A DNA stretch of 58,079 bases, counting the filler, from Sphacelaria rigidula (Eukaryota): the NCBI GenBank assembly GCA_964200075.2. It is 4 parts of 4 records of this genome, joined end to end, with 100 filler letters (N's around TTAATTAATTAA, not from the genome) between each part and the next. Parts side by side here need not be neighbours in the genome. Positions count along the whole stretch, not along the records: positions 29,091 to 43,535 come from CAXNAA020002238.1; 3 more parts are not named here. One strand, 5' to 3'. Below are positions 4,101-54,900 of this stretch, in pieces. Below the pieces are notes generated by a model, which was not told the origin of the DNA, made no database searches, and saw nothing but the letters and a program-made list of their open reading frames with translations. Every line of letters starts with the position of its first letter. Positions within the stretch are counted from its first letter, which is position 1. Position numbers and translations under genes: made by a program.

Positions 4101-6262
4101 GCTCGCCACGAGTGCCAGTATGTACTGGATCGGCTGCCTTCTGCTGGGGTAGCGGAAGTTGCAATCCAAGATGAAAGTACGGCAACAACACCATTCAAGC
4201 AATACCTGAAATAATCAGAATGAACAGAAAACCTGGAACAAGTGACATCTGTATATGTTCCTTGCTACTCAACACAAAATAGCCGAGTTTGGGGCGAGTC
4301 GTGCCTATCTACTCAGAAGTCGCATTCATACTTGCTGTCGTTCTGTAGACCAAAGCGGACAGAGCGGGGGCGGAGCTAGCTCAGGTGCTTCGAAGAGAAA
4401 AGGCAAGCCGATCGCATCTGACCGATATACAGAGGGAAGTGGAAGAGCTCAAGGCCGAGCTCGATAGCATGAAAGAGGCTTTCGTCAGGTAAGGAAAATA
4501 TATCATGGTGGGGTTGGTGGACGTTTGGGTCTCGGGGAAATACTGCATCGTCCCGTGCACAAATATACGCCTGAAACTTTCCGCGATAGTCCCCCCCCCC
4601 GAAAACAAATAAACTAAAATTGTCACGAAGAAGAGGGTCATACATCGCCTGATGTTTGGTTTCAGGCTGCATGAAGCGCCCCATATGGGCGACACTGGCA
4701 ACAATGAACCCAAGCGTGGGCATTCCTAGCTGCTCGTTGTGCTCGGCTTTCTGCATCCCGATTCACGTGTAGAGTTTGCCTCCCCAAACCAGCCTCTTTT
4801 TTCGGGGGGGGGGGTGTACTAATGATCATGCATGCCAAAGTCATAAGATCATTCACCTCGCATCCCTACAAAGCCGGGACGGAGCATGCCGGGTTTTCGC
4901 CGGACCAGGTTTTTTGGGGGGGGGGTATCGCAGAAAGTGTCGCTTGAGTGCAGCGTAGTCACATATAAACAGACCGAGTAGCATTTAAAGAGCACTGGAA
5001 TGTTTCCCCGATTTTTCATCAGTCGCAACTGCCGAAAGAGCTACCGATGCACGTGATGGGTGTTCAGAACTGGAGCAGTGAGATATGTTGGCTTAATAGT
5101 GCACATTGCGAGCTTTTGATCAACGCTATACTGCCGCGCTGACTCTTATTTTTGCAGGCACAGGAGTGTCGTCCGAAAGAATCAGGACGTGATCGATTCC
5201 CACGAGAAAGCCCTGCAAGGTGCAAGGCGAGTGTTGGGGTACACGTTGGCGTGAAACGATTTGCGGAGGGGACGGGAGAAATTCTAGTGTGCATGAGAGA
5301 GCTTACCGTCCTTTCGGATTGGAGCCTCGGGATGTTAGCCGACATTTTCGAATTGTGGTACACGATGACGCGGCATTCTCTCAATGGTCATAATATTGAA
5401 GACACGGATCCCGGGGGGCTCTATTGTTTCATACTTCGAAGCTACCGAGGACGAGGGTTCTCCCCAAATTTCGCCGATTCCGAAACCCATGCTTTACCGG
5501 CCTCTTGTGCAGAGAAGGCTGACGCTTGTCCACTTCTTTTGTCTTCATGATGATGAACGGCATTCTTGAACTCTGCAGGTCTGAGCTGCTGTCCCTTACC
5601 CTCGAGGCCGAAAAACAAAGCGCACGACACGGACAGGCTGCTGCAGATGCGGCTGCGGAACTCGCTAGGTACTTACGAGAAACTAAATGCCTACAGGATA
5701 CCTTTACTCATTGAAACGAAATTGCGTCGTAGTTTCAATTGCCGAGAATATACTGTAGTACACGGGTTGAACTTGATGGCATACATACCGGGGCGATATA
5801 AATGATTCTCGGAAGTAAAACATACGATGCTGCATGGGCCAATCGTCAACTTTTCGCGCTTTGTTTTGGTGCCAAGTTGCACATGTGTGCGCCCTGGAGT
5901 AATGCGAATATCTGATTTTCAATCTTCGAAGGAACAGTAGCCCAGAAGAATTCCACCGCAGGGCTTGTGCTAGTTTCCCGGGTTGAAGCATGAGCTCATT
6001 GCGTAGGTGAAGTTCGAGCGAACAGGTCTGGTTAGCTGGCTGACATACAGCATGCATTGAGCGATCAGCTTCACAGGCCTCACATATCGCGTTTTTGTAC
6101 ATAATATTTCCTGACTGACGGAGAACAACTATGTGGTGTGTGTATTCCGTCAACAGGGTGACCGCCGAGAAGGACATCGCCCTGGGAGACAACCGTGGCC
6201 TTCGGGTGGAGAACGAGGGACTCAAAGACCGCCTCGAAGAATCTGGCCGCAAGCTTGAAGAA
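1113..6262 (+). CDS. Internal 7 exons of an unknown coiled-coil protein (1113-1214, 2152-2261, 2742-2820, 3154-3237, 4349-4488, 5579-5668, 6157-6262); both ends unresolved
   Basis: All exons are bounded by AG/GT and intron phases are compatible (0,2,0,0,2,2). The joined peptide is E/K/R/Q/L-rich and heptad-like, e.g. EENAHLRKQVAELEGR, IQREVEELKAELDSMKE, LRVENEGLKDRLEESGRKLEE. Confidence 0.8.
1354..1410 (+). mobile_element. Fragment of type A C-tailed element
   Basis: AGCCTGGTCCGGCGAAAACCCGGCTTGCTCAGTCCCGGCTTTGTAGGG matches 1789-1836 and the reverse complement of part of 4804-4909. Confidence 0.65.
1732..1896 (+). mobile_element. Longer type A C-tailed element (intronic)
   Basis: Colinear with the reverse complement of 28716-28878 from CCCTTCAT..CTCGCCGAACAC to a degenerate C tail. 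Confidence 0.75.
4575..4939. mobile_element. MITE with G/C-run-containing TIRs and degenerate 8-bp TSD
   Basis: Left end AACTTTCCGCGATAGT(C)10GAAAA is the inverse of right end TTTTC(G)n..TATCGCAGAAAGTG. Flanks ACGCCTGA/TCGCTTGA match 6/8. A related uninterrupted end lies at ~14556-14601. Confidence 0.55.
4804..4909 (-). mobile_element. Type A C-tailed element inserted in the G-run of the MITE TIR
   Basis: (G)11TGTACTAATGATCATGCATGCC...CCGGACCAGG, flanked on both sides by a T-run plus G-run duplication. Confidence 0.8.
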
Positions 6263-14545: not shown

Positions 14546-15624
14546 AAACCGGGCATTTCTTCGGGGGGGGGGGGGGGGAGGGGGGCTATCGTAGAAAGTG
14601 TCCCCTGCCTTGAGCAAAGCTTGAGAACGCTCGAGGCGCCTAACCCACAGTACTGCCGCGATGCCGTCTAGCCGAGCGTCCGGATAATCGGCGCACGAAC
14701 CCGCTTGCGGGGTGAGGGTTGGGTCAAGTTTCCTCTTTCCTTCAAGGGGAAAAAAAAAAACAGACGGTCCGGACTGAAAGGGGCGGACCTCTCCACCATG
14801 ATCACATCACACTCACCAGAAGCACCCGCCGGCAAACGTCGCGAGGTCATCCCCGCTCTCGCTCTTCGACGGCACCTGCAAAAAGAAATTAATGGTAATA
14901 GTAATGAATAAATAAAAAACAACGCGCAAACAGCACCACAACACAGAAAATAAAAAAGGAGTCAAAAGGTATGCAGTGTGGAATCTACTCTTGATTGCAC
15001 TAGACGAAATAGTCGATATTGTTCTGTACGCAGTACACTTCTAGACAGTGAAATCTATTGCCATCATCACAAGTATTGAAGAACCCGCCGACGAAAACAC
15101 TCGCAAGTTAGAACTTAAGCTGTATAGCCCGATGAAATGATCAAATGTCAGGTAAATGTGTATGTACATATGCATTGTGGGCACGTCATTGATATAATGT
15201 CGTACTCCAGATTCTATCTCACCTCTCCCTTGAGAGCGGCCTTCGCTGCCTCTTGTGCTTGACCTTCCAATTCCTCGTACTTCACCTCCGGTTTCTTGAA
15301 AGGATTCGAGAACATCATTCGCACCGCGTTTCCGGGGAACGCTGTTCGACGACGGGGGAAAATCGCAAAAAAGTAAAACATCAAAAGAGGTACACAAAAG
15401 ACGTAGCAGCTTGACGGGCGTCGGCGCTTGCCGAGTCACAACTAAACACGCACGAAGGGATGCTACAGCATTATCCCTCCGCATACTTTTTTTCATATTT
15501 TTCGTTTCTTTACAGAGGCGTGATTCCTCCCTTCCGCACGAACTCCACCATTTTTTCATGTAATCTACAGTTCTCATCGAGACAAGTATGTCCCTTGCCC
15601 CTCCTCCCCCCCCCTGCCACCCCT

Positions 15625-15731: not shown

Positions 15732-15802
15732 TCCTGCGATCGCTCGAGTCTCGCTACGAGCGTCACCATCACCATCAATACCGCCACAAGCTCACACAGA
15801 AT

Positions 15803-16585: not shown

Positions 16586-16794
16586 GCCTTAAATTACGGT
16601 CTCGCGGATTGGGTCAGTACCTCTCGTTAAACTCAACGCCAACTACTTGTCCTTTACCCACGTACTCACGCAGTTTTTGGCCGTGAAAATTAGACCCTTC
16701 GAAGAGCAAAAAAAAAACTCAACGCATCAGGGATCGAACCCACCTTCTCTCCACTAAAGTGATCGACGGTCGGACCACTACTACACCACCGGGG
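16586..16794 (-). mobile_element. tRNA-derived SINE (family 2); 3' boundary approximate
   Basis: Minus strand CCCCGGTGGTGTAGTAGTGG (A box) ... GGTTCGATCCC (B box), then a T10 run; no full cloverleaf. Confidence 0.6.
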
Positions 16795-21800: not shown

Positions 21801-24218
21801 GATAGTGGACAGTTATTGTCGTCTTCACCACGACCAAGGACATCAACACCAGCCCATGGACGCGATTTCCAAGGGGGGGTGACTACTACCTGGTCCGCCA
21901 GTGCTTCTCCTACACCAGATATAGCTGCTGTTGCGCGCACGAATCCAGGTCCTCGTGCTGGACGTGCGTTTGCGGGTGAGAAACCGGTATCTATCCCACT
22001 TGATTACCACGAGCCGGCTGACGTCGTATCCATGACGATGAAAACGATGCGTTCCAGGACGGCACGACCTCTCTATCGCGAAGACGTGATGGGACTGGGG
22101 GGAGCCACACAAAGTGGGGGTGGTTGGCACGGAGAGGGGCGAGTCCTGGGTGCTCCACCTGTGTGTCAACCAAGCACCACTAATGGAACTACGCAGGTCG
22201 ACACCCTCCTATCGTCTCCTATTGTTAAACCCGACATGATTTCGCCACGGAGCTCACCGCCGAGAACAGCCGGAATTGCTAGAAGAAGCAAGCTTCCTGC
22301 TAGGGCGGAGACTCTGGCCTGGACGCATCCCGGAGCAAATCCCATCCGCTCAAACAGGAGTGCAGACGTACCGACAGAAGCGACCAGGAAGACTCACAAC
22401 AGCATCAGACGAGTGCATCGATATCGTCGTGTAGATGTACCGCTGCGGGCGGCAACTATCTACTTCGATCAATACCCGCCGCTGCCAATCCACAAAAATC
22501 GACCAAAACACGCGCGGGGGCAGGTGGGGACGCGTTTAGAAAATGGCTCTTCGCACCCTCCGCCTTGGCGCCCTGCCGGCACGTCGTCGCTCCCTGTTCC
22601 GCCACCGCCGGACGTAAGTAAAGGCCGGGAAAGCGAGGAAGGGAAAAAGCTCCGCGTTTTTCCCGACGATATTTTGGATCCCGATCGCAAGGTCTCTTCA
22701 GCCGATCAACTCTCGAGAGGTCCAAACTATGCACGTCGCGGGAGCGGAAGAGATGCCGGGGCCCGCCGCCGCCGTCCGCGGAGGTTGGGACGACAACAGC
22801 GTGTGGAGGGCGCAGTAAGAGCTGCTGCAGCTACCGCTGCGCCTGGCAGTGGTCGTGAACCGTCCGCGGGCAACGGTGAGGAGGAGCAGAGCGCATGGAG
22901 TCGCATACGAAAGCAAACCGCCCGTAGTATCAGGCGTTCCGGCAGGAATAATGATAATGATGATGACGACAGTGACGGTGAAGAAAATATGAGGAACGGG
23001 TCGTTATCGGACCACGAAAGAGACGGACCCTCCGGGAAACAACGGATGGCGGCATGGCATGAAATGGCCGGAGATCGTAGTCGAGCTGGTGTGATTCCGA
23101 GCGCTGTTGATGATAGTAACAGCAACAACATCCGGGGCACATCACCATCATCGGCGTTGTACGCGTTTGCGAAGAAGAGCAGGATCGCCTGGGACGACGT
23201 GACGCACGATAATCGGCATCTCGATGCCGCGCCGAACCGCACACGGTTTCTCAAAGCGACAGCATCGCCGCCGACCGACATCGGATCTTCGTCGGAAAAT
23301 GGCGGGTCGTCAGCACCGTTGATTTGGGGGAAGAATCATTGGCATGACGAGGAAGCCGTCGGACGACGCAGTGCGTCGGCGGGACGGCCAGGAAAGCGGA
23401 GGGGTGTGACGGCGGCGGGGTACCATTGGAGCGTAAAAGTGCCGGCTTCATCTTTGTCATCAAATTCGAGCAATGATGATGCGCAACTCTCGGCAAAGGA
23501 TCTGAATCAAATCATGGCCGGTGGCGACGTTACCGCACACGGTGAAGCTGAACGACCTCCTACTCCTCTTCAGTATGGGGTGTCCACACGCGATGTGTTT
23601 TGCGGTTCGGACAGGGGCATCGACAGAATGGCCCCAGCCGCGACCAACGCTTCCGGGAATGCGGACCTGTTGACGCCCAGGATCGGCTTGAACACGGATA
23701 CGTGGAAAGTTGACCGCCACGATGAAGAATCTACGAGCAGAAAAAGAATTGAGCAAGATCATGCACGAGCCACAACTACAGCACTGCTTGCTCAAGGGGA
23801 AGATGGGGGAGGAGGAGAAAACGCAATGTGTAAAACTCTACACGTCGCGGCGAGGGATAACATGGTCGGAAACGGTACAGCTATGGAGAGAGATACGAGA
23901 TCAGGCGAAGTGCGATTGGTCGATCGCTCTGCTACCGAAGAGCGTAAGGTTGGGTGGGCGATGGATGTCGCGCGTCGCTTGACAGGCAGTAAAGTGGGAG
24001 ATATCGTCACTTCTTTTCGGACAGAAAGTGATGCGTTGCTCCCCGTCGATATTGCCTGGGGGGATGGCGAGGATGAATTGGCCAACCGAGAGACGGAACC
24101 ATCTTCGGCTGTGGAATGGGATAGGACTGGATTGACCAGAAGAGGGCGGAAGCCGTCTTCTGTTGTCAACGACGCTAAAGCCTGGATGGACAAAGTGAAG
24201 GCAGGTTTGTGTTGGTAG
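18823..24218 (+). CDS. ~1,520-aa largely low-complexity protein with two IQ-like motifs (exons 18823-18870, 19441-20532, 20796-24218)
   Basis: Two long ORFs join in phase 0 (CAG|GTGAGG ... TGCAG|GTT). A putative first exon runs CCATGG..CAG|GTAATA. Motifs AASLLQSAWRLRRK and AARRVQLWWRNHLR. Confidence 0.8.
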
Positions 24219-24890
24219 AGTCATCGATCAGCCTCACCCGGGAAAAAGTATGGCTCAGTGTCGCGCTCAACAAAAAGAAAGAGGGAATTTCCCTACTCTT
24301 GTGCACGTTTTCAAAGCATATCTCCCGTTTTTGTTTTCTTCCCCAATTTGGAAACGTGCACGACTTTTCCTGCATCGCGCTCTTCACTTCCAAATCTGGG
24401 GAGTGGGAACTCCCGAAAATCGTCACTGCTACGTGTTTCATGCGGCTCGGGGCACGCACAGCCCCAGCCAACACCAGACACAGCCCTGGCTACGTATCTG
24501 TAGTAGATAAGATTTCGCCGTTCTTGGGGGTGATTACGATACCATTGGGCGCCGGGCTCCTAGATAGTACCGTTTAATGGGGTGTGGAACGTGCGCCCAA
24601 ACGTGCTCAGCATGAAACTGTCCAAGGTCAGATCCCACTTCCACAGCACCAGTCAGCCTAGTGCTGTTGTACCCCTATCTAAAGCCCATAAAAGTCATTG
24701 TTGCAGACGTGGGCAGATGATGCGTGACTTTCCAATATACCAGAATGTCGGGTATACCCGACATAGCCCGACGCGCCCTTAAAACTGTCGTCTCTTCCTT
24801 TCGCCGGTAAAACAAACGAAGGTGGATGGTAAATTGAAAAACAAAATAAAACTTAATACTTTCGTTCTGGGCGTCACCGACGTGGATCAA

Positions 24891-24920
24891 GATCATGGGT
24901 GAGTACACCCCCCCCCCCCC
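24891..24920 (+). mobile_element. Minimal 3' stub of a C-tailed element
   Basis: GATCATGGGTGAGTACA followed by a long C run. Confidence 0.6.
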
Positions 24921-26307
24921 AAACCAACAACAAAACTGTCACAAAGCAAATGACCATACAGCGCATGACAGCTGGTTTCAGACTTCATGGAAGCCCTCAT
25001 ATATATGGGCGACATTGGCGGAAGCGATACGAAGTATGATGGGAGTTTCCAGCTGCTCGGTCGGTGTGCTCTGCTATCATTTTGCTTTTTGTGTAGCTTT
25101 TCTTCCTCAAACCAGCCACTGTTCTGGGGAGAGCTATCATCGCGGCAACTGCCGAGCCCTCACGTTACCAAAACTTCAAGGCTTCAAAACATAACATGTT
25201 TTTTTTGTAGATTTCGAAGTAGTCTCGTATGTGTTTCGCAGAGGAACGGTTGTCACTGTTTTATGGTAAAACCGTTTGTCCTCAGGATTCATGCTGCGGC
25301 AGGGGTTTCACCTTTGGGCCTAGATCTTCCTCCCTCAGGGGCGCTTCCAATATTACGAGCTGTACAAAAGAATACAAGTGAGGACATTCCCGTGTTCTAG
25401 TCCATTCGGGATACCCCTAGGTCAATGTGATGCTGATTGTGGTGTGCTTTCACATATTCTATGAGTCGTTTTTTGGATGAGATAAAGAGCTCTTCACGAT
25501 TCGAACCTCGGGAAACGTGTCTGCACCCCTACCGTAGCGCACCACTCTGAGATGTATCTCACCCGTCGTGTGTTCTGAGCCTTCTTCATCTGCTTGTCAC
25601 TACTTTTGGGTTGCGGCCGTGCACTGCGAGGACCTTTCCCACGCCGCAGGCTCTCAACTTCTCCGCGCATTACTTCATGTCTTGGGTATTAAGATTCCTT
25701 GACGGGGAGTAGTATCTCGATCCTGGCATCGACCAAAAATGGACCGCAAGAGCGCGGCCTAACCTCTTTGAAGTCAGCCCGCGACGAAGCTCCCGTGGCT
25801 TTGTCATTAGCTCTGTGCCAGGGTGGTGTAAAGGTATTGAAAACGGAAGCAAGGTATATATCGCCCTATCCTTTTTTCTCCGAACGTTGGAATACGATGG
25901 CACCCATACATGTTTGATGGAAAGGGTGTAGTCATGCAAACACGCTCCTTCGATTTTTGGTTTGTGCACCAATCAACATGCATGAAAAAATGTACTTTTG
26001 CGACAAAGTCACTGCACATTGTGTGGACTTTGTCATGGGATCGAGAGAGAGGGAAGTTGATCCCTCTATCTGGAACTCATACAGACAAGGCAAGATGGAA
26101 AAAAAACCAGTTGAAATCTATTCAAATGGTGTATTTTGAGATGCTTCGTTCTCGATGTATTATTATGCTGATTGCCACACCAAGCCAACCAAAGAGAGCG
26201 TAACTGCATGGCCACATGCTTTCCAGCAAAAATGAATGCTCGGGGATACTCACGCTTTGCACAATTGGGAATCAAATCATGCGCTTTCATTGTTTGTGCA
26301 TGTTGAA

Positions 26308-26603
26308 CAACGTTTTCGTGAGATAGAGAGTAGAGCGCGGATTGAGAGTGGCGTTGATGATTCGCTTTAACTAAGCCGATTTTTCATTCCGTGTGTGCTC
26401 TCCGTTACCTCCATCACTGCCGTGTGCTTACACCTACACATCGATATCCTACTCAGGGATATCAAGGGCTTCGGTGGCAAGCTACTACAGAAAGAATATC
26501 GGGCCTCGTGGAGGGACATTTCGGAACTGAAACGATTCAGTCACTAACTGACCGCTTTTCACTTTCAATCGTATCCTCGACTCTCAATCTCGCGAAAACA
26601 TTG
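26308..26603. mobile_element. MITE with ~43-bp TIRs
   Basis: CAACGTTTTCGTGAGATAGAGAGTAGAG..GATTGAGAGTG / CACTTTCAATCG..CTCGACTCTCAATCTCGCGAAAACATTG; no convincing TSD. Confidence 0.75.
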
Positions 26604-27158
26604 TTGTTAGTGGGTGACCCTGCCCTTCCGGCCACATTTTTTTCCTTCACAGCCGATGGTGTCTTTTCATGACGGGTTGGACACGTTCACGTCATTTTGT
26701 GCATGCGAATTTTGGCTGAGGATACAAACCTTCCGTGTCGATGAGAACTGCACCCTCAATACTGTCTGCCCACATAGCGGAGGGGGAACATTGGCTCAAC
26801 CCAGTCCACATGTTAGGTTGAGCATGGGTAAATTCTACACGGCTATGCAATCTCGCGCTTCGCCCAAAAGGAGGCCACGAGACTGTCGCGGTCGGGGTGT
26901 CTTGGCGATGTGATCCACGAAACACGGTTGAACTTTCCAACAATATACGAAAATTGTCCGGGTCAAAATATGTGTGTGCTGATTCGCTTGGACGCCTTAC
27001 AGCAGTATAATGCCCAAAAGCCGACGAGAACCGCCGCATTCTTTTACGTATGTACGGAACCGGCTCCTCACAACGGAAGAGAAAAAAATCAACTCTAGCC
27101 GCAAATCCGCAGAACACTTACTCAAGAGACGACAACTTCTCGCGTGTCGTCTCTATTT

Positions 27159-27420
27159 CAAGGATCGGGCACATTAATAATTCGTCTGGAAATTCCTTGA
27201 TTTTAGTGCCATTGAGTCTTACCGGACGAATCAATCCTTAGGCTTTGTTTTCAGCGTTGCAACCCAGGTACGCGCAGCCCAGCAAGTGGAATGGCGCAAA
27301 AATTGGGTGGAGAACTCTTTGACCAGCGGTATTTTTTTGTTTTTCTCTTTCGAGCAATCAGGCGTGAAAAATCGTCGTGTATTTGGTGATTCGAACCGGA
27401 GATGATTCGTCCGGACCGTT
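27159..27420. mobile_element. MITE family copy 1 (others at 35280 and 43369)
   Basis: Shared core AATCAATCC(T/C)TAGGCT..TCAGCGTTGCAACC(C/T)AGGTAC; flanks CTCTATTT/CTATATTT match 7/8. Confidence 0.75.
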
Positions 27421-27657
27421 CTATATTTGCAGTACTCGTGGACCCGCAAGCAACGCGAAGGGAACATAACGCATAAGAAACAAACCCATCGCGTGCACCG
27501 CCGGCACATATCTTGAAGCGTTTCGCGACAACAGCGGGAGGAAGGCCGGCTTCAGACTGCTATTGTAGGACATATCTGCGAATATCCGCCGACACGGCAT
27601 CCAGCATGAAATCAAACAGAATTCAGCCCACCCACCACACACATCTTGGAAACACTG

Positions 27658-27810
27658 CGCACCCTGGACAACATACATGGTCAAAAATTGCAACAGACAA
27701 ATAGTATACTACGTAGAGTACAGGCCTGTTGTCGGCCCGACAATGATTGCAACAGTCCTATACTCTACGCAGTATGATTTTTGTCTGTTGCAATCAATGA
27801 CCATATGTAT
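27658..27810. repeat. Foldback or MITE-like inverted repeat with ~60-bp arms
   Basis: 27671-27731 is the imperfect reverse complement of 27750-27808; starts CGCACCCTGGACAA like the TIR at 10460. Confidence 0.8.
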
Positions 27811-27954
27811 CGTCATTGTTGAGGATGCCACACACTGTAAATCAACATCGATATTGCGACGGACAAGCAACCGAACACGGCGCCCGCACTTCACCCAATA
27901 CAAATAATCCAAGTTAAACGTCATGGTCAACAAATATCCAAGTAAACGTCATGA

Positions 27955-28335
27955 TCAACAGCAACCCGGGCAGTTGTGCAAAGAATCGTGGATGTACATG
28001 TCGCAATCCAGGCAGAACGTATCGCTACACTCCGGACACCGATACCTAGCCAACCTCGTCAAATCTCGTAAACACGCGGCACAAGAGGCTCTCGCCCCCG
28101 CCCCCGCCCCCGCGCCCGGGGCCGGAGAAAGCCTGCCGTGCGATGTTGCCCCTGCAGTTATCGGGCTGGAACTCCGCGACCTAGCACCGCCACTACCATT
28201 TGACGAGCCGTCCGTTGCAAGGGCTGCCTGCGATGGGTCGGCCGCCGCTGCTGCTGCTGCCGCAGCCGTAAATTCTTGAAAAGGTATCACGGGGAAAAGG
28301 TGATGGTACGAGCGCGCGAGGTGCGGCGACGAGAC
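27955..28335 (-). CDS. GTF2H2: Last exon of general transcription factor IIH subunit 2 (p44/Ssl1); upstream exons lie outside this contig
   Basis: VSSPHLARSYHHLFP signature and C-terminal C1-like Zn domain CAAC..YRCPECSDTFCLDCDMYIHDSLHNCPGC; pyrimidine tract plus CAG acceptor. Confidence 0.92.
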   Translation of the reverse strand, partial: VSSPHLARSYHHLFPVIPFQEFTAAAAAAAAADPSQAALATDGSSNGSGGARSRSSSPITAGATSHGRLSPAPGAGAGAGARASCAACLRDLTRLARYRCPECSDTFCLDCDMYIHDSLHNCPGCC

Positions 28336-28570
28336 CTGTTCAATGCGGGAGCACGAGCACGTGCATGGGGAGGGGGAGGCGGGGGCGGGAACGGGGGAGA
28401 GAAGGGAAGGAGAAGAAAAAAGTGTCTGGGTCGGCCGGAGGACGGGGGCGAGAGGGGAGATTTTGTTTCGATTTGTGAGCAACGAAGTGCTAGCGCGACG
28501 AGTGCAAGATTCAGACGTATCGGGCAAGCGCTCTCTCACCAGGGGAGAACATACACCACCCCGACGAACA

Positions 28571-28906
28571 TGGAGAGGGGGGGGGTGTACTCATGATCAT
28601 GCATGCCATAGTCATCAGACCATTGACCTCGAGAAGGGGAGGGGGTATTCATTTGTTGCTTGCCTTAGTCGTTTGACCATTGACCACGCATCCCTTCCAA
28701 GACGGAGCACCGAGAGGGGGGGGGTGTACTCATGATCATGCGTGCCGTAGTCATATGGCGATTGACCCCGCATCCCTACAGGGCCGGGACGGAGCACGCC
28801 GTTTTTTTGCCGGGCTAGGCTCGCACTCAACCACCAACCACCAAGCGCCGTGTGTGTTCGGCGAGTCGCATGAAGGGAAATTGGAGAGGGGGGGGGGGGG
28901 GGGGGG
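28571..28906 (-). mobile_element. Stack of three C-tailed LINE 3' ends (type A 28577-28630, type B 28636-28711, type A 28716-28878) in a GTF2H2 intron
   Basis: Each junction repeats GAGA(G)n; both outer flanks are TGGAGAGGGGGGGGG. Confidence 0.85.
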
Positions 28907-28990
28907 AACCCTCCGCTTTAAAACCCTGATAAAAATAAAAAGACAAGGGGCCGTAAAAAAAATGTATGTAAACGTATGTTTTAATTAAAC

Positions 28991-29090: not shown

Positions 29091-29270
29091 CCTGGAGTAG
29101 GAGGGGGGGGGGGGGGTATAAACCGTTTTCCAGTCTGTAAGGCCCCTTGCAGCAGTAGGGCATTGTAGCGTCTGGGACACAGGGCATTGCAGCCGTTGGC
29201 CTCTCGCCCGGCAAGCTACACGCTACAAGTTGTACAAGCTACCACCTTTCCCCCCACACTATCTACCGCC

Positions 29271-31275
29271 GGGTTGACAACGTACTGTTTATTTCTGGAC
29301 GTGCTAAAGGCCTATGACACAGTATGGAGAAATGGACTGTGGAAACACTTGTAGGAAACTGGGATCAGAGGAAAGATGTGGAAAATGGTGAAGAAGATGA
29401 CAGAATGTGCCAAAAGTGTCATGATGCTAGACGGGAAACTGTCGAAATATTTTTATATTTTACAAGCCTGTACGAACCCCGGTGGCTCAGTCGGTTACCT
29501 CGAACCTGACGGTTGGGTCGCGGGTTCAAATCTCGGAGCGACCTGGGATTTTTTCTCCACCATGCCCAACAGTGGAGAGCGACTATGTCATGGGTACTCA
29601 AAATTCGACTCAACGGTCGACGAGGGGAAGGGACTGCTAAACGCCTCTCGCGATCAAAAATAAAGGCGAGCACCGCAGAAGGAAGGTGGAGTACTAAAAA
29701 CAAGCAAGAAAGAAAAAAACTCCTGTGTTGACCTTCCTCCTGTGTGACCCCGGCTGATGCGCCCACCTATACCGAAAGGTGTAGGCCGGCGTCCAGAATA
29801 GATGGGACAACACACACAAGGAGTTGCACACGGATGCACGTCATCACCCCCTTTATTCAAGGTGTTCATCAATGACTTGATACTCGCAACAGAAGCAACA
29901 AGGCAAGGAGTCAAGGTGAGTGAAGATGTGATATCAAGTTTGATGTTCGCAGATGATTTTGTGGGGATTTCAGGAACAGCAGAAGGATTGCAAAAACAGA
30001 TAGCCAAAGCGCTAGAAAACACCAGGAAATGGAGAGTGACAGCGAATGTTGACAAATGCACGGTACTCGTCTGTAACGAAGATGAGAAAAATCCGGTAGA
30101 GTTCAAATGGAAGTGAGGAGAAGAGGAACTGCCGATCGTAGACCAGTATATATACCTCGGCGTAGAGATGTCAAAACAGTGTTTTGGGGATGAAGAAATA
30201 AAAAAGGGTAAGGCACAGATAGGCAGGATGGACGTGATCCTCAGAGATTCGCACCTAGACACAAGGATGAAGAGATGTATCCTGATGATCGTGATTGTAC
30301 CAAAGCTGGGATATGCAGGGGAAGTATGAGAGGGGAACGTGAAATCGGTGAAAAAGTTAGAAACAGTACAGGTTGCAGCAGCTAAGAAGATACTTATATG
30401 CTCGAAAACGACGAGTAATACAGCACGGGGAGCAGAGTTGGGAATGTACTCACTTGAATCAAACAGAGACATGCGGAAATTGATATGGCAATATAGCGTA
30501 AAGAACATGCAGAGAAAGAGGTTGCCAGCTATAGTTGATAGGGCTGTACGAAAGAAAATGATGAAAGGGCATGCTAAAAGGTGGGATAGAGAAGTCGAGA
30601 AAGTATGGAAGGAGATGAGAGGAAACGAAGACGAAATACCGTCCATAAGTGAAGGCGCAGGGTACAAGACAAACAAGGAGAAAATGAGCGCTTAGACCCA
30701 AGGTAGACGAGGAAGAACAACACCTGAAGATATACTGGGGGTTAAGAGAGGGGATCGGAATGAAAATATATCTGCATGGCCCCATGGACGCGGCGAAAAA
30801 ATTGGAACTGCGATTTCGGGTGGGGACCTGGACCTGCCAAAAAGAAGATATAGATATACCAGTAAAATGGTCGAAAGGAGGAGAAGGGAGATAGACAGAG
30901 CTGCCTCTGTGGCAAAGCAATAGATAGCAGAAGCCATACAGTTGCAAAATGTGAATTGTGCAGGGAGGAACGGGACGTGCCATTGAGGGGGAAATGCGGG
31001 ACGTGAACGAAGGTGGCATGAAATCGTTTAATGCATGAGACAGTAGCGAGAAAACGATGTTTATACTAGAAAATAGATGGTGGCCACAGACTGCGAAACA
31101 GGACGGGGATGAGATATGTAGAAGGTTTTTGTGGAATTTATGGAAAAAACGTAATGAGCGCCGGAATGTTGGAGGTCTCTATTAGGAGTAAGAACGGTGC
31201 TCCGTCTAGAGAGGGATGCATGGTCAAGTGTCAAACGACTAAGGCAAGCAACAAATGAGTACGCCCCCCCCCCCC
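29271..31275 (+). mobile_element. 5'-truncated degenerate LINE (RT domain to 3' end; RTEX-like clade is an inference) with a C tail
   Basis: FLDVLKAYDTVWRNGLW, ILQ|GVAHGCTSSPPLFKVFINDL, LMFADDFVG, with stops and frameshifts. Ends ACAAATGAGTACG(C)12. Flanks CCCCCCACACTATCTACCG / CCCCCCATCATCTACCG. Confidence 0.92.
29467..29815 (+). mobile_element. tRNA-derived SINE (family 1) inserted in the LINE RT coding region
   Basis: A box TGGCTCAGTCGG, B box GGTTCAAATCT, (CA)n tail. TSD ACAAG at 29462-29466 and 29816-29820; removing the insert restores ILQGVA. Confidence 0.88.
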
Positions 31276-31518
31276 ATCATCTACCGTCAGTCGACATTAA
31301 AAATATTGTCGAACTGCCGGTACCGGTTGTACGCTGTATAAGTGTACTAGTGACACACATTTTCAAAGACAACATGATAAATAGCATCATGTATGAAGAT
31401 GATAAAATGGAACATTTCACTGATTAGACCCGCAACAAAATAGTTTTCACTTTTCCCGTGGACTTTGACGACACTACTGCACTCCCCTTGACCGTATGCT
31501 CAACGTGCGTTCTAATAG

Positions 31519-32159
31519 GTGGAGAACTTCCACCGAAAAGTGGTGGAGCGCTTGGCTGCCGAACGGCGAATTGCAGATGCGACCTCAGGCCGTAGGAAAC
31601 CTCACCAGATTTATCCAACTTTCGAATCGGCGTTCGCATCACCTGAGCTGTCGGTTGACGTTGTAGAGCCGACGCTTTGGCAAACTTCCCCATCACAAAA
31701 TGAGGTGAGTGTCGACTTGTGGACAGATCTGATGCCATGTACGCGAAGGGACAGCGATGCTTCACACCCCAAGGCTGCTTCGTCAAAGCCGGTTTCACGA
31801 AGGAGCGCATGGGGTTCCCTTCACAGTTACTGCTTTTTTCGAGATGTGCAAGAAGACGAAAGCATACCACAACCCGGTGTGACAAGATTCCACATCACTG
31901 AGTTCCCCATAATAGAGACCACAATGCGCGAAGTCAAAACTGTTTCAGAGGGTTGTTATAAGCGACGTATGTACAAACGTACATCTGAGCTTTCAACCCA
32001 TGGCTTTCAAAATCGGATAGAAGAACTTGGGAAACTCGTTTTTTTTCTTTTGGGGTTTGCTTGATTTTACCTAGAAGCGTTTATTTCTTCCTGCAGTTCT
32101 ACTTGAAGGCTCCAGATGTCCATCGATACTTTCGAGTGCGATCACCCAGGGAAAGATAA
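31519..32159 (+). CDS. Last two exons of an unknown gene (31519-31704, 32097-32159)
   Basis: TAG|GTG..GAG|GTGAGT and TTTCTTCCTGCAG|TTC..TAA join in phase 0: VENFHRKVVERLAAERR...QNE/FYLKAPDVHRYFRVRSPRER*. Confidence 0.6.
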
Positions 32160-32443
32160 GCTGCGTATTTTCCCGCTCGTGTGGCGTATCGTTTGTGTGA
32201 CCTGCAGGCCCTCTACTACAAGCCTGTACAGATCAAGGGGCGACACGGAGATAGTAACAGCTTGTCAGTTGCAGACGTGGAGGCGAGAATGGCACTATCG
32301 GCCTACCGAAATATAGAGACGAGAGATGGATGAGGGAAAGCGAGTTCCCTGCTCCTCAGTAGGCTCATGTCTTATATTTCGACCCACACTCTTGTACTCT
32401 TGAATTTATAGATGAATTGTAATAGACGTTTTAGATATGTAAA

Positions 32444-32749
32444 CCGATGGCTCAGTTGGTAACCTCTAAACCCCCGACGTTTGGGTCGTGGGTTCAAACC
32501 TCGGAGTGATCTGGGATTTTTTCTCACACAATGCCCAACAGTGAAGAGTGACCACGTCGTGGACACACTTCGGCTCAGCAGTCGACAAGGAAAGGGACTG
32601 CTAAACCCCTCTCGCGATAAAAAATAAAGGAAAGCACCGCAGAAGGACGGTGGAGAACTAAAACAAAGATGATAAAATAAAAACCCGTGTTGGCCTTCCT
32701 CCTATGTGACGGCGGCTGGTGCGCCGACACAACAAAGGGGACAACACAC
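32444..32749 (+). mobile_element. tRNA-derived SINE family 1 copy (3' part internally shortened)
   Basis: Colinear with ~29477-29815; A and B boxes present. Confidence 0.85.
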
Positions 32750-34203
32750 GCCTCCATGAGCGTCACGGCGGTGCGCCACGCAAGTTGTTCGGTGTTCATC
32801 CCTCATGAGGAAGCTTCCAAGTACTGTGCACAGAAATTAACTGTAATCGGGGCAGTACATCCACTGCTCGGTCTGGGCAGGAGTATGACAAACGTTATAC
32901 CCCCAAGAGAAGGCAGTCATCATCACAAGAGAACCTTTCCACTGCATTGGACATCTTGAGCAGGGAAATCAGCTTCTCTCATCGGTAGTACTACTTGGGG
33001 AACTGCGGACCCGTGTTGGTGTCTGTTCAACATGTATGGCCCTTTGATGGGCACTACCGTCTCCTCTTTCGTCTCTATTTCCAGCAGTTCAGGCACGATT
33101 ATCATATTCGTGACGGCTACACGTGGATCCATGGAGTGCAGGTTCAACGAGATGGGCTGGCCGTGGGCTGGCCTGAAATCTCTCATGTCAAGAATTGGGA
33201 CGCCACCCGACCGCAGTGTGACCACGCATCGTACTTTCTGCAGGTTGCTGAGTAAATCTGCTACAAGCAGCCACGTAAAGGCTTTATTTGCTACACCACA
33301 AACTACTCAAATGACACATCTCAAAGCGCACGCGTCAGGCGTGGAACTGGCCCACGCATACCGTACACACGTACCGTGACATTGTTGTTGGCAAAAATGA
33401 ATTCTGAGCTACGGGCAACCATCCATCTCTTGTCCCTGCTGCCGCTACCATATTATTTTCACCTGTACAACAAAATATACCCTTCCATTTTTTTGCGTTT
33501 GCACTAGTCGGTGTTGAGATTTTGGTAGTATACGTTATATTTTCATATAACCACGGCTGGATCCCTGGGTGTTAGTTAGCCCTTCGACCGCAAGGATGGG
33601 TCACCCGTGGATTCGGCATCAATTTCACTTGAAAAATATATTGTGTGAACAATCAGTCAATTTGCAAAAAAGGTATGTGTAAAATGATTTATCGTCGCAC
33701 TTGAACGCTTGATTGTCGAGCTGGTCAGAAAGGGTGAAAGGGTAGACTCAAGGCTGATCATGTTGCGTAGTGTCGCAGGACTCGTTTCATCAACCCATCC
33801 TGAACATACACATCCGTCACGGCGCAATAAAGCGGTCAAGCTCGTCAATCTTCACAACACAAATCAATCCCCGTCGCCACGGCAAAGCGGGAAAACCCAG
33901 CCGCTCGGGTCGATCGCGGCTCTTCACTCAACACAAGCGACGCGACAACCGTTTATTAGAATACATTGAAGGCGTTTCCTTCCACGTTCTAGCCAAGTGC
34001 ATAACGAGTTTCGTGATTCACTCTATGCTAAGCATCCAGTACAACACAATACCAGGTACACGATGGATGCATCAACACCTTCGTGAACCGCACGCCCCTA
34101 CCCCGGCAAGTCAATCCACATTGCAAGTCAAAAACGGGGAGCCAGATGCACACGTATCCGCATAATCGGTTCACCGACTAGGAAAAGCCTCCTTTCGTCG
34201 AAA

Positions 34204-37200
34204 TTACCGTTGGAATTCCCCATCAAAACCGGTGAAGCCCGTCAATTGGAACATGGGAAAGAATGGCTTGGTGTTGAGGTGCGAACACCAATTCCATGCA
34301 GATGTCAGGCGACCGTCAATGCAACTGTTCAGTCAAAAGGCGACGGTGACAGACACGGGACGGGGAGAGAAAACGGGGGAAAAGGACACAGAATGATCGT
34401 GTTAACCCGACAAGTAACAACACAAGATCACAACACAAGGGGCGCTTCCACGGTTTGGAACGCCAGCGGGTTGCACGGGCATTGGTACTTGAGCAAGTAA
34501 ATCAACATACTCCAACTGAACAGTGAGTGGAGATGTAGAGAGGTAATGAGCCATGTACAACCACTTGAGGCAATTTGCCCTGTATGAAGGGCAACATAGC
34601 AGATTTCGTTCCGTGTGCCCGCACAGCGCATGCGCAGTAATGACATGGACCCCTACGTGGAGCACCCGCAACCTTCTGTTGCGAGGATCCGGTCCAAAAC
34701 AATCTCGCCAGTGTGTTGGGGTGACCATACCGGCTGGTCCCACGACGTACTTGGGCTAAAAAATGTCACCGGCGATTTTTCGCTCGGGCTCCGAGAATTG
34801 CGGCGTGAATTTTGGCGAGTGGTGCGGATTGACGATAGAAGACAAGACCTACTGATGGGGGAATTTTGCTTCCATTTGATATACTCAGGACTTGAGTCCA
34901 TGCAATCGAATTTCCGAAAAAATGTTCACCCTCATCTTAGAAAAAAGAAAAAAATGAAAATTCCTCTAGGCATGGTCTTCAAAAGGTAGACTCGCACCTC
35001 TTCTCAAAATTTCATGTCTCAACCCTCAAACTTCGAGCGAAAAATCCACGATTTGTGCGTGGATTCTCGGGGGCATTCGTCATTCGTACAGTACCTGGTG
35101 CTCTACATCAAAACGGAAAATGGCGCCCCAGCGCATGTTCGAGTGGAGGATGAAACGACTTTCAGCCCCGGATGAGGGAGCGGTGGGAGGATCGTAGATC
35201 ACCAGGCCAGGGTATGAATATTCTATTGGAGCGATACCTTGGGGGAATCATCATTCAACTGTATGAGAACCAAATGGTGCAAGGGTCGGACAAATAATGA
35301 TTCGTCTGAAAATTGCTTGGTTTTAGTATCGTGAGTCGACTCGTAACAAATCAATCCCTAGGCTATATTTCAGCGTTGCAACCTAGGTACACGCAGCCCC
35401 AACACGTGGAACGGCGCAAAAGTTGCGCGGATACCCCTTGGACCAGCGATCAACNNNNNNNNNNTTGGGCATTCAGGTCGAAGAGATCGTGAATTTGGTG
35501 ATTTCGAGTCATGATGATTTGTCCTAACCGTGAAATGGTGAAACACCCCCATCCGGGACTATGCGGGCATCTTTGGCGGTGAGATTCACCTTCACTCCAT
35601 CGCCGGTTGGGAGGCTATTTTTCACTTCCGGCATCGTTCGCGGTTCAATTTTTGCAACGTATCATTATCGTGATCAAAGACCGCCGTCCGTACGTTTTAG
35701 GCCAAGACGAGACGGTCGAAACCACCTCTCCGCAGTCACCGTATATACCTTCCCTCGGGAACGGCTGTGCTGCCGCACCATACACCTCCCGCCTCCGTTC
35801 AACTAGACTAATGTTTTCTCGACCTTATTTTGGAATGAAACGTATTACATTTTGGAGTCTCAATGCGTTTGGCAGGGTAGTGAACGCGGAAATCCGACAA
35901 GAGTGACCTACTTGATCGGGCATTGCCCCAAGGGTATCCCGCTCAAAGCAACCATGAAGGGCTGCGCAAATCCCACAGTAATACCGCATTCACACGTCAC
36001 CGACAAATGACACTACACTCACAACAAAACACAGTGGATATATTTTCTCGCGTACCCACTCGACAGAGTGATCAATTTCGAAAAAGAAAGACTCCGACAT
36101 CCTTTCTGCCGTGGCTGCCCAGTCGCTCGACACCTCCAAGTCTATCAAATATACACACCTGCCCGCATCGAAAAAGTTATCCGCCCCGCTGCCGTCGAAT
36201 GCCGAGCGGAAGAAGTCGAAGAGGATATCCTTCCTGAGCTTTTCCAGCCCCCCGTAACCCGTGTCAATGAGTGTCTTCAAGGAGGGGTCCTTTTCGTTGT
36301 TGTAGTGCTCTCCAAGCTGCTCTATGCACGACACAATGGGTCCAAGGATACGCGATACCTAGGGCAAACGGTGGCGAAGGTGGCAAAGGCTAAGTTGCAA
36401 ACATGATTACCCACAAAATGGGGGGTTAAAATAGCAGAAAAAAGCCCAGAGCGACTTCAAATAGCTGGCCACGTTCGACGCGTGACCCAATAGTGAAATA
36501 GTGGTGCAGGAAATCTTTTACACAAACCCTTTTGTCACATGACTGTTGCTTAGCTGTGGCCGGTGTTTTCAAAAGATGGGTACGGTATTGCCTAAGCGGT
36601 ACGAAAATGTACCTGGGTATACTTGTCGATGAACATCAGTGCATTGGGCACGTTGTGATCGCCAAGGTGGATTACGCTGCTTCCGACCCAGCTGTCCACC
36701 TCTCGCTGAGCATGGTACAATATCTCCTGCGACGGGTGGTCGGTGTGTGGTTCAAGTTGCCCGGAAACGACGAGATAGTCGGTGTAATGAGGTGCAATTG
36801 TGCTGCAACGAACATGAAAGGTGGGCGACAGCTGACGTGCCAAGCACGAGGTGCATACAGGCAGGCAGTCTAACATTGTTTCTGCCTTATGGTCACTGAC
36901 GAAATGGAATGTGGTACAATGCATATCTCAACGCCACATCAAGTGCATCTGGATATGGGGTTATTTGACGCTTGTCAAGCCGATGTTATTTGTGAACCGC
37001 ATATCTCACAACTCTTGAAAAACCTTCCGTGGTCGTCTGAGACCACAGACGAACAGAATTACTATATATATATTGAAACTTGTCCATATAACGACTCACC
37101 TGTATTCTGTGTGTAAACGGGCAATAATCGTGGGGTGAAAAATATGGGCAGGACGCACTATAATCTTCACCTATTCACGTGCGGTAGTATAACAGAGCAA

Positions 37201-40200: not shown

Positions 40201-40679
40201 TAAAACATTTGGTCCCTCGGCTTGAACCCTACCGCATACCTCGGTAATCGCGCTTCAATCCTAATACACCATAACGCTTCGCTTTGTCGACACTCACAAA
40301 CTCGTCATGACAACATCTCGCTCCTGAGATAGAGCGAGCAACACAAGCATGAATCTACCTCCCGTATCTCTTGGCGTAATCGATGTCAATGCATGCACGA
40401 TATTTATGAATGCATCGTCAAGTGCAAGCACAAGACACAAATGTGCGCGGCGAATACGTGTTTCACCACCAGTTTGTACACTATACCGCTTACATACAAC
40501 ACACACACACGCGGGCAGTGAAAGTACCTGCTTAAGCATGAGGTTTTGGCGCTTGTTCGAAGAAGGGAAGTCGGCATCAACCCTCCCCGTGTAGTCAGTT
40601 ACAGATATTACAGACTCCACTAACCGCAGGTAACTCCGCTCGTCACTTGTCAGTCGCACCGGGATGAATTTCGATCGCT
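34204..40679 (-). CDS. UPF0652/DUF2009 family protein; 10 exons (40679-40528, 40073-39903, 39347-39280, 39026-38885, 38465-38383, 38021-37838, 37471-37313, 36726-36613, 36358-36159, 34324-34204); first exon unresolved
   Basis: All introns are GT-AG and in phase, giving ~464 aa. Family motifs [106 protein letters not shown]. Confidence 0.92.
35280..35532. mobile_element. MITE family copy 2 with perfect 8-bp TSD (contains a 10-N gap at 35455-35464)
   Basis: CAAGGGTCGGACAAAT.. / ..ATTTGTCCTAACCGTG; AAATGGTG at 35272-35279 and 35533-35540. Confidence 0.85.
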
Positions 40680-43368: not shown

Positions 43369-43535
43369 CAAGGATCGGACAAATCATGACTCGTCTCGAT
43401 ATGACTTGGTTTTAGTATTCTTGATTCGACTCGTAGGAATCAATCCCTAGGCTTTGTTCTCAGCGTTGCAACCCAGGTACACGCAGCCCAGACACATGGA
43501 ATGGCGCCAAAGCTGCGTGGATACCCCTTGGACCA
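43369..43535. mobile_element. MITE family copy 3, cut by contig end
   Basis: CAAGGATCGGACAAATCATGACTCG.. colinear with 35280-35445. Confidence 0.8.
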
Positions 43536-43635: not shown

Positions 43636-43885
43636 AGTAGGTCTCCTGTAGTTTAATGGGTCTCGTACGGATCTTTCGTAGTGTGGGTGCCCTTTTTTTC
43701 GTGTAGATGTTTTTGTTTATTGCCTTCTTCTGCGGGCTGTTTCGGTTATGGGTATATTGCTCCTCGCACTTTGAGACCACGGGTTCGAGAGATCGAGCTA
43801 ATGTGATGAATACAATAATAATAATAGTAATAATCAACCTATGAAGGCCGTTCCTGTGGCAAAACAAAGAAGTAACCGGTATTGC

Positions 43886-44103
43886 CTTTTTGGTCCTTCC
43901 GCGTCGTTTTACGCCTTCAAAGAGGGCTAGGCGGATGTGGACACCTTGGAGTACCTTGCTATGCTCATTGAGATGGTTCCAGGACATGCCTTTTTGGTTC
44001 TTCTGGGTCGTTTTACACCCTTCAAGAGAGGTCCGTTGTATGCGCATGTTGACACCTTGGAACGACTCGCTATGCTGACTGAGACGGTGCCAGGACACCT
44101 TTG
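43886..44103. repeat. Two diverged tandem copies of a ~105-bp unit
   Basis: GTCGTTTTAC..GACACCTTGGA..GCTATGCT..TGAGA.GGT.CCAGGACA occurs twice. Confidence 0.7.
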
Positions 44104-51938: not shown

Positions 51939-54900
51939 ATGGCTCGTACCGCTGTTCGTTCTGCTGCTACTGCTATTGTACGTTGGCTGCCTGTTGTGCC
52001 TACTGTAATCCATATCACCAAATCAGTCAATGGAAGGAATACCGATTGGGCGGACGTTGCGTAGCAAGCCGCATTGGCGAGGCTTGCAGGCCACCACCAC
52101 ATCGCCATCGAGCCTTGGCCTCGAGTCTCGGCACGAAGAGAAGCAGAACCCTGCATCAAGTAGCCCGGCGAGCGGTCGTGGAGAAGAATGGGCCTACCGC
52201 ACAGGTTTTGTGTGTGTTTGTGTATGAGGGGGGTGTTTGCATGTAGTCGAGATCCCGCCCACTCGCCCGATAAGCCTTGTTGAATTATATTTGTAATATC
52301 GCGATGGACGATATCATGGCCTTGAGCGTGGGATGGGCATCGTTCACATGATAGTATGCTGCAGAGGATGTGGATCGGCCCGCGAGGAATGTGTGCGAGG
52401 CGGGGGGAATGCTCTCCGCGCGCGCGTCTGTGTATCAACTCCCCCCTCGAAGGAGTCCCCGCTTGAATATCACGGGCCTTCTCGTGAGAGAAGAACACGC
52501 CGCGATGCAGTTGGATACAGGAAAACATACTCCCAAATTTATGTTGATATCACTTCGCTGTCGAAGGGCATTGCAACGCTATTCCGCGTGAGGTTATTGT
52601 AAAATCATCCTCATGCCCTCTTCTCGCACAACGAGATAAAGCTCGAAAAACTCACAGTCAAGCTCTTCCTGCCCATTGAAAAAATCTCACTTCTTGTACT
52701 GCGAGCAATCGACTCTCTTGATGAAACTCTGACGCGCCACTATGACCAGCGCGTGTGTACGACACGGTCCCAATTAAATAATCACAGACTGTACCTCTTG
52801 ACTTGGTCAAACTAAATCAACTACGGTTCGACCGTGCAACACATATTGCCAACTGCGGGGGAGGCTCCAGGGTTTAGGTTAGCGACCGATTACTCGAGTG
52901 CCGTATCCGTCGTTGTCCACGCCGTGAAAAACGTCCCTTCTGGTTCACGTATTTCCGTCGTTTAAGGGTCCAGATGCCGGTTTGGAGGATGCACGTGGAA
53001 GGATCACTGACGGTGACGACGAAGAGGGCGACGAGAGTGCTCTAGATTCCAAACATAAGGGTGGTTCATTGCTGGAGACGGAGAGGGCCCTGCGGGATGG
53101 GCTTGCCGCGTGGGAAGAATTGGGAGAAGGGCTGACCGGGGTACGTTTGTGTGTGGTCCGTCGCTGTTTATTTCTGACGGTGCAGGGTTGACCGATATGA
53201 CCAATACGACCAATGCTTCTATGAAATTGAAAGTGTAGGATACGATCGAGCGTGAGAAGTGATCATTTAATGAATTACATATTTTCAGTTCCGAAATACC
53301 CCTCCGCGTCTTATATAGCTTTTTGTAGAAGCTCGCCACTGAAAGGCTTTGATATCCCTGAGTAGGATATCGATGTGTACCTGTCAGCAGACGACAATGT
53401 TAGAGGCAAAGAAAAACATCCACAAAATAAAAAGATGTTCAACTTAGGCTTCATGATAAAACTCACTAGTGCCGGTCGTCCCGGTGGCTCAGTTGTTGAC
53501 CCCGAAAACTTCTGACGGTTGGGTCGTGGGTTCGAATCTCTCGAGTGACCTAGGATTTTTTATCACACAATGCCTAACAGTGGAGAGCGACTATGTCGTG
53601 GGTACACAAAATTGGATTCAACGGTCGACGAGGGAAAGGGATTGCTGACCTCCTCTCGCGATAAAATATAAAGGCAAGCACCGCAGAAGGAAGGTGGAAA
53701 ATTAAGATCAAATAAAAAGTAAAAACTACTGCGTTGACCTCCCTCCTGTGTGACCCCGGCTGGTGTGCCCACATATACCGAAAGGTGTAGACCGACGTCC
53801 AGAACGAATCGGATGACAATACACACACCCTCTCTCTCTCTCGATCAACGCAAGACTCTCTATCTCACGAAAGCACTGTTTACAGCAGGACGCACGACCG
53901 CCGCGCAGTGGTATACCAACAAGAGAACATGTTTATTCAAGACACAAAATGTTTTTATTGGACGTACCCACAACTCATGAGCACGGCAACACCCGAAAGG
54001 TACTGACACCTGCACAGCTATAGGATACTTCTCCCTCATGATTCTGCGTCGATATCCTGGTATCCCGATATCTTTCGCCACTCACCATTCGATGTGAGGT
54101 GAAGCAGATCACTTCGACACACACTCTCCCGTGTTTCCACTCAGCATCAACGAACTGACGAACCGCCGACAACACTACACTACTAGGAGCTGAAAGAGAA
54201 AACCTGGGCCCGTCGCGAAAACAAAATTTCCAGCCGCGTATTAACGCCGCAAACTGAACTACTGAGCAATCGGAAAATCAGAACCTGAATTCCCTCCTCA
54301 ACGTCACACGCATCGATCCTTAGTCGTTTGACCATTGACCACGCATCCCTTTCGAGACGGAGCACCGAGGGGGGGGGGGGGGGGGGGTCTTAGTCACAAA
54401 AGTGGCATGAACATCACTCACTGTCCAACGGCAAGCAGCGGCAGGTCAGCGGTGACATGAACACCACTCGAAGCCCAACGGCGAGCAGTGACACTCCAGC
54501 GGTTCCAGGGCAGGCATTGCCCAACAGCCGGGTCCTCAGCAGATTTCGAGGTCCAGTGAAGCAAAACGCTATTTTGCTGTAATGATTCTGGTACGCACTG
54601 CTCTGCTGTCTGTACATGTGATACTATAATACTCGGTACTGCGTAGTCACCCTTGTTGTGCTTTAGCTTGCCTCACCGTATCGACTTTCCTGCGATGCGG
54701 GTGCGGAGTGAACAACGTGGCTCCAGCGACTGTCTGCGTGCTAAGTTGACAGATAACGTGACTCTGGGATTATTCCCAGTCGTTTAGTAGAGAATAACTG
54801 TGCAGTGTATCGTGTGTTGGCTGCCAATCCCGAAAATCGGACCGGATGTGTGTGTGTTGTCACCCCATTTATTCTAGACGTCAGCTTACACCTTTCGGTA

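Follow-up and report, generated by a model that had tools for sequence, protein, structure and literature searches.

A poly(C)-tailed LINE in the brown alga Sphacelaria rigidula whose truncated 3' stubs mostly adjoin C runs

The stretch of Sphacelaria rigidula DNA analysed here (58,079 bases, hereafter the window) carries at 29268-31275 a 5'-truncated and decayed LINE of the APE type, the ORF of which ends 5 nt short of a tail of twelve Cs. Some eleven additional 3' stubs, which fall into two sister types, and a third, ultra-short family likewise end in a C run. The best explanation, to which we assign a probability of roughly 0.7, is that the element is a brown-alga LINE of the RTE-X type that integrates much as L1 does, with C replacing A.

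Sequences and counts

The window consists of four pieces of ~14.4 kb each (1-14445, 14546-28990, 29091-43535 and 43636-58079), separated by linkers (N/TTAATTAA). All counts are drawn from this window and from foreign loci, i.e., L-numbered contigs of other assemblies; 79 of these loci encode relatives of the LINE, and seven of the 79 matched a C-terminal query. Stub copies were collected with the pattern ATGAGTACRCCCCC plus BLAST. The main features are listed in Table 1.

Table 1 Coordinates of the LINE copy, its flanking duplications and the 3' stubs in the window
Feature	Position	Strand	Remarks
Type B 3' end	1-34	+	with (C)8; cut by window edge
Type B fragment	1354-1401		
Long type B copy	1732-1898	+	older, decayed; tail CGCCCCTCCCCC
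B-like end	about 2660-2706		judged by eye
Type B stub	4804-4909	-	stub 4815-4909 with (C)11 tail; whole region 4804..4925
Family C stub	14563..14602	-	ultra-short, ~17 nt GACACTTTCTRCGATA with (C)n
Type B stub	15626-15731	+	stub 15626-15721, tail CCCCACCCCC; (C)9 and CCCC within 20 nt upstream
Very short type B stub	24885-24920	+	about 23 nt with (C)13; no upstream C run
Array of three stubs	28573..28906	-	(C)n+TCTC four times around three elements
Type B stub	28577-28630	-	stub 28586-28630 with (C)9; array member
Type A stub	28636-28711	-	
B-long stub	28716-28877	-	stub 28725-28883 with (C)9; array member
LINE TSD, 5' copy	29250..29268	+	CCCCCC with ACACTATCTACCG; last G ambiguous with first LINE base
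LINE body	29268..31263	+	RT C-terminal half, CCHC region, ORF end; RVT_1 and blastx
Nested interspersed repeat	29469..29816	+	348 bp; foreign to the LINE; splits the RT ORF
LINE (C)12 tail	31264..31275	+	
LINE TSD, 3' copy	31270..31286	+	last Cs of the run with ATCATCTACCG
Type A stub	54318-54367	-	cut at 3' side; preceded by (C)19 and TC; whole 54318..54387

Results

The LINE copy and its coding capacity

Between 29268 and 31255 the window aligns, in several frames, to residues ~807-1360 of full-length relatives with 47-75% identity (blastx; relatives used: P0004, 1360 aa, and P0006, 1328 aa), i.e., the copy starts at about residue 807 of the 1360-aa relative. In-frame stops interrupt its ORF, in which a reverse transcriptase domain is recognized by Pfam (RVT_1, E 2.3e-07), the same domain occupying residues 740-989 of P0004 (E 9.8e-31). 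The truncated window copy lacks the APE-like endonuclease region, which is seen in P0004 and P0006 (Exo_endo_phos/Exo_endo_phos_2, PF03372/PF14529, residues 170-414), N-terminal to the RT. The marks of a LINE were found: an RT domain, an APE-like endonuclease in the full-length relatives, and 5' truncation with a tail and a target-site duplication (TSD). One ORF encodes the whole of the element, comprising an N-terminal region, an endonuclease of the APE type, an RT and a C-terminal CCHC motif.

The repeat nested within the LINE falls between residues 872 and 873 of the relative, the blastx HSPs stopping at 29468 and restarting at 29817. Other copies of this ~340-bp repeat were found by BLAST at 32444-32728 and 53480-53827, with partial ones at 54849-54919 and 58018-58077. 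It contains what by eye is a tRNA-like stretch, for which neither ARAGORN nor Rfam returned a match.

At its 3' end the window ORF reads ...AAC AAA TGA (31250-31258), with the stop TGA at 31256-31258 followed by GTACG, and the ORF of the relatives terminates in ...NGAPSRKGCVVNGQMTKASNK and the stop. The block GCTCCGTC..GGGATGC..GTCAATGG..GACT..TGAGTAC, which the original prediction had described as shared by the 3' ends, turns out to be the coding sequence for the ORF C-terminus, so that the 3' UTR of type A is only 5 nt long (GTACG). A conserved 3' hairpin is unsupported: RNAalifold on nine ends gave -6.38 kcal/mol and 0 compensatory pairs.

Two further observations concern the foreign copies. 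On the LINE coding strand a (G)10 lies in the endonuclease region (L001:315-324 and L003:313-322), and its opposite strand is a potential C-run target for nested insertions. The near full-length copy L084 (88% aa identical to P0004) has, in the first ~215 bases of its reverse strand, two or three direct repeats of ~65 nt, each ending in T8-T10 and situated upstream of the region shared with L002; the contig stops before the true 5' end, and the direct repeats may be those of a 5' UTR or promoter with a repeated structure.

The tail is made of C in several assemblies

The expectation of a tail of C instead of A was borne out, as the LINE ends (31255-31275) in ...AACAAATGAGTACG followed by the (C)12. 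Type B tails range from C8 to C13. With at most one mismatch, the pattern ATGAGTACRCCCCC has seven matches in the window vs 0.03 expected. C/G runs of at least 9 number 13, in comparison with a mean of 0.39 (maximum 3) over 200 shuffles, and 13 of the 15 runs of at least 8 are, by our own reading, either a stub tail or directly 5' of a stub.

Five foreign LINE copies likewise end in C8-C13 or C10TC9: L001, L002 and L005 finish with ...GAGTACG and C8, C10 and C10, respectively, and a DNA pattern scan of contigs binned with bacterial MAGs gave C13 for L081/L084 and C10TC9 for L080. The protein encoded by L005 falls in a second lineage (72% identity to Ectocarpus P0011), and given that the C tail is found there too, this tail characterizes the group rather than a single family. 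The (C)n tail is a conserved trait of the family, seen in both protein lineages and in several assemblies. More distant loci (L041 and L043, ~29% identity) end in (TAATG)-like repeats, and no clear tail was seen in L004 and L067, which are among the seven loci matching the C-terminal query. The type-A pattern was found twice in genome contigs and not in viral contigs; a pattern with type-B spacing, which is one base too long for type A, had no matches in metagenome and viral contigs. L080 and L081/L084 place a eukaryotic LINE on contigs filed under bacterial MAGs, and these contigs are likely mis-binned algal DNA.

Homopolymer G runs are a known read artefact and tail lengths are hard to assemble, so that one might take the C/G runs for a poly-G artefact of sequencing or assembly, or for ordinary microsatellites unrelated to the element. 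We regard this as highly improbable, as the runs are flanked within their contigs by unique sequence on either side, come after the same ORF end in every case, and turn up again in five or more foreign assemblies as well as in a library curated by hand.

Two sister types of stubs and an ultra-short family

The forecast of about ten further stubs in two sister types agrees with what was recovered, namely three copies of type A (including the LINE), eight of type B and one B-like end. In most copies the 5' truncation is extreme, with 17-160 nt left. The last ~75 nt are common to the LINE and to type B, a high-copy sister family for which blastx returned no protein-level match to the LINE proteins; for this reason type B was treated as non-coding or non-autonomous, and it is apparently non-coding. 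Family C has other copies at 4916-4941 (minus strand) and at about 4574-4600 (plus strand), the former providing, with its tail, the upstream C run of the type B stub at 4804. C/G runs were also said to occur at the other end of several stubs, and they do so at 4916-4925, 15606-15614, 28888-28906 and 54369-54387.

Two neighbors of the stubs deserve mention. Both copies of a ~205-bp repeat (4601-4803 and 24921-25125) begin right after a stub C tail, the first moreover extends up to the G run of a stub on the opposite strand, and the ends of this repeat resemble short inverted repeats beginning with CCCC. Abutting the stub array is an ORF with poly-Ala and Pro-rich stretches (27955-28590, minus strand), which by eye looks like a C4 zinc-finger host gene.

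C runs precede the insertions and open their duplications

Stubs adjoin C runs far more often than by chance. A C run of at least 5 lies within 25 nt upstream of 8/9 window 5' junctions vs 2.0% of all positions, and a run of at least 8 at 5/9 vs 0.28%, in a small sample of non-independent junctions, one array accounting for three of them and three or more of the upstream runs being tails of other stubs. The longest upstream runs at the nine junctions are 10, 9, 5, 2, 5, 9, 15+, 6 and 19. This count excludes the end at 1-34, which the window edge cuts, the copies at 1732-1898 and 2660-2706, for want of a defined boundary, all three family-C stubs, and the foreign copies L001, L002 and L084, the contigs of which do not extend to the 5' end. 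When foreign junctions are added, 9/11 have an upstream C run, with a type B stub following the C10 of the LINE in L005. The remaining two are the stub at 24885, with neither an upstream C run nor a TSD, and L080, with no upstream C run and no clear TSD.

The LINE itself had been credited with a degenerate duplication that starts with a C run, and both flanks, CCCCCCACACTATCTACCG (29250-29268) and CCCCCCATCATCTACCG (31270-31286), were found in the form given. Common to them are the C run and, beside the junctions, ATCTACCG, the duplication being degenerate and 17-19 nt long; a shared word of at least 8 anywhere in the 30-nt flanks arose in 42 of 5000 shuffles of the 3' flank. Clear TSDs, each with the C run first, were recognized in three cases, i.e., the LINE, the 4804 stub ((C)10AAAAAA upstream vs (C)11GAAAAAA downstream) and the array at 28573-28906, and that of the 15626 stub is ambiguous. 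In L002, CCTTATCA (L002:313-320) was considered as a 5' TSD and rejected; the full-length L084 aligns with L002 from L002:121 onward, and the 5' ends of both lie beyond their contigs. Taken together, the junctions and the three C-first TSDs sustain the claim of homopolymer-C targeting as a preference, and the two junctions that have no run (24885 and L080) show that it is not absolute.

These same two junctions, with their tails of C13 and C10TC9, would fit a different origin of the tail, in which the C run is not borne by the RNA. Instead, untemplated Gs would be added at the nicked DNA end, by the RT or by some enzyme of the host, before the RNA is copied, and the target would need no C run at all. 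The LINE's 3' C run, which is longer than its 5' one (12 vs 6), points in the same direction. However, the addition of Gs alone predicts neither the inclusion of the C run in the clear TSDs nor the excess of runs upstream of the window junctions over background, and we consider this origin unlikely.

An array of stubs and the abundance of their relatives

On the minus strand the array begins with (C)19TCTC, a B-long stub (28725-28883) with (C)9 and TCTC, and continues with a type A stub (28646-28711) with CCCCCTCCCC, (T)TCTC, a type B stub with (C)9, TCTC and the flank. Four copies of (C)nTCTC are expected if insertions occurred repeatedly at one and the same C run, each of them duplicating (C)xTCTC. 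Such arrays could also be single events, in which the RT, on reaching the 5' end of one short RNA, switches to the C tail at the 3' end of a second, and the mixing of families (B, A, B in this array, and family C beside B at 4804-4941) is in keeping with jumps of this kind, as are the many contigs from other runs that join the tail of one stub family to another stub. But the TCTC that follows each of the four C runs and the AAAAAA that brackets the 4804 stub have the appearance of TSDs left by separate insertions. Template jumps would not regenerate flank bases from one unit to the next, and we hold single events to be slightly less likely still than the addition of untemplated Gs. Separate insertions into C runs are the reading that we retain.

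Abundance and empty sites were assessed by comparing Logan contigs of four other runs with 14546-28990. In run X1 the summed contig depth, which is not a copy number, was 50,105, 79,604 and 3,409,676 in stub-bearing bins vs ~67 in single-copy bins. Near-identical stubs thus exist at very many other places, and the family-C stub at 14563-14602 is joined to type B tails in contigs of other loci (joints 14602->28577..28583). No clean joint across a stub, i.e., no empty site, was found in the contigs of the four runs over 14546-28990. In run X4, the match of one contig breaks off at 24888, where 30 unlike letters follow, and that of the next begins at 24955 after 23 unlike letters, leaving a gap at 24889-24954 through which the contigs of X1 and X3 run. 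This break at the 24885-24920 stub may be another allele.

Discussion

A proposed route of integration through C runs

The annealing of an RNA C tail to a nicked G strand, as originally proposed, fits these data and is a plausible way to account for them. The endonuclease would nick the bottom DNA strand within or adjacent to a G run, and the exposed G-rich 3' end would pair with the C run near the 3' end of the RNA and prime reverse transcription. Because polyadenylation cannot supply C, the C run of the RNA would have to be transcribed from the genomic run of the donor. Cutting of the top strand 2-13 nt past the C run would then give a TSD composed of (C)x and a few bases. Each insertion would leave behind a new C run and hence a new target, which would explain both the mixed-family, head-to-tail arrays and the excess of C/G runs.

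Mammalian L1 has a poly(A) tail, its endonuclease nicks at T-rich sites, and a T-rich primer pairs with the A tail. The element described here resembles it in the homopolymer tail, in TSDs that begin with the tail base, in frequent 5' truncation and in the mobilization of short partners, and its RT is distantly similar to L1 ORF2p (E 6.6e-21). The tail, however, is C and not A, so that polyadenylation cannot be its source and it has to be either read from the genomic run of the donor or built at priming. Moreover, the 3' end is conserved between the LINE and its partners, as in LINEs of the stringent type, whereas recognition by L1 is relaxed.

LINEs with simple-repeat tails, such as eel UnaL2 and the microsatellite-targeting elements of the R1 clade, offer a second comparison, to which RTE-1/2_Ec32 and CRE-1_Ec32 of Ectocarpus may be added. 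With these the present element would have in common a non-A tail copied from the donor locus, the pairing of tail repeats with the nicked target and a tendency to land in the same repeat, but here the repeat unit is a single base, C.

Relation to the RTE-X elements of brown algae

RTE-X is a clade defined phylogenetically. The name is used in that sense in published work (PMC10294476), and its application to the present element is provisional, resting on the shared tail, the architecture and the host group and not on the position of its RT among labelled references in a tree. Of the named relatives, proteins of Ectocarpus are the closest (44-61% aa identity); they share a C-terminal ...NGAPSRKG.V.NG..T.A motif and carry no clade names. 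Solved relatives are distant ones only (L1 ORF2p and R2) and are uninformative for clade assignment.

The question of a prior description, raised together with the original prediction, has an answer in the curated Ectocarpus library. Its supplementary file 1 (PMC12477816) lists RTEX-1_Ec32 with a 'single EN-RT ORF; (C)n 3'' and a 'C-rich' TSD, RTEX-2_Ec32 with '(C)n termini/TSD', and the non-autonomous RTEX-N1/N2_Ec32, which have a common 3' 60-100 bp, 'can be present in tandem' and likewise have a 'C-rich' TSD; RTE-1/2_Ec32 are given a (CAA)n tail and CRE-1_Ec32 a (CA)n tail. Going by these entries, the kind of LINE found in the window was already annotated, and the novelty that the original prediction implied does not hold, as (C)n-tailed RTE-X families with C-rich TSDs had been curated for Ectocarpus. 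By the same token, the Ectocarpus curation independently records C-rich TSDs for such families, and the preference for C tracts is thereby supported. In its accessible portion, the main text of the library paper mentions neither the C tail nor a mechanism (PMC12477816). The S. japonica genome paper names RTEX-1 in kelp (PMC4421812), and no LINE or RTE passages were found in the available part of the Phaeoexplorer preprint. Within the accessible open literature we found no paper on a poly(C)-tailed LINE, the sole record being the Ectocarpus supplementary table (PMC12477816).

Both features of the brown-alga (C)n group were recovered here, namely the (C)n terminus (in the window LINE and the five foreign copies) and C-rich TSDs, and the tail separates the element from RTE proper, being (C)n vs the (CAA)n listed for RTE-1/2_Ec32. 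A single EN-RT ORF, a (C)n end, a C-rich TSD and a brown-alga host are features that the table entries for RTEX-1/2 and RTEX-N1/N2_Ec32 share with the present element, and the correspondence extends to short non-autonomous partners with a shared last 60-100 bp, to tandem copies and to a high copy number. The Ec32 elements differ in belonging to another species and in being diverged, the comparison being one of table descriptions and not of consensus sequences. Judged against those descriptions, the ultra-short stubs of 17-50 nt and the (C)nTCTC array are described here only.

Implications

Homopolymer-C tails are rare among the LINEs described in print, and the window independently supports the conservation of both the C tail and the C-tract preference in different lineages of brown algae. 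An ORF that stops 5 nt short of the tail and the accumulation of ultra-short stubs into arrays with repeated TSDs are shown as well. For annotation, the element accounts for most of the long C/G runs in such genomes and flags eukaryotic LINE contigs that have been mis-binned in bacterial MAGs. A further-reaching proposal, to which we would give an even chance, is that RTE-X elements of brown algae have a distinct mode of integration, i.e., target-primed reverse transcription primed from G runs through a C tail that polyadenylation cannot supply, with every insertion, even a stub of 17 nt, planting a target. If so, these families would create landing sites for themselves and fill the genome with homopolymers of C/G and with arrays of mixed stubs. 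The family could serve as a natural system for learning how far the pairing between primer and tail can by itself direct LINE integration.
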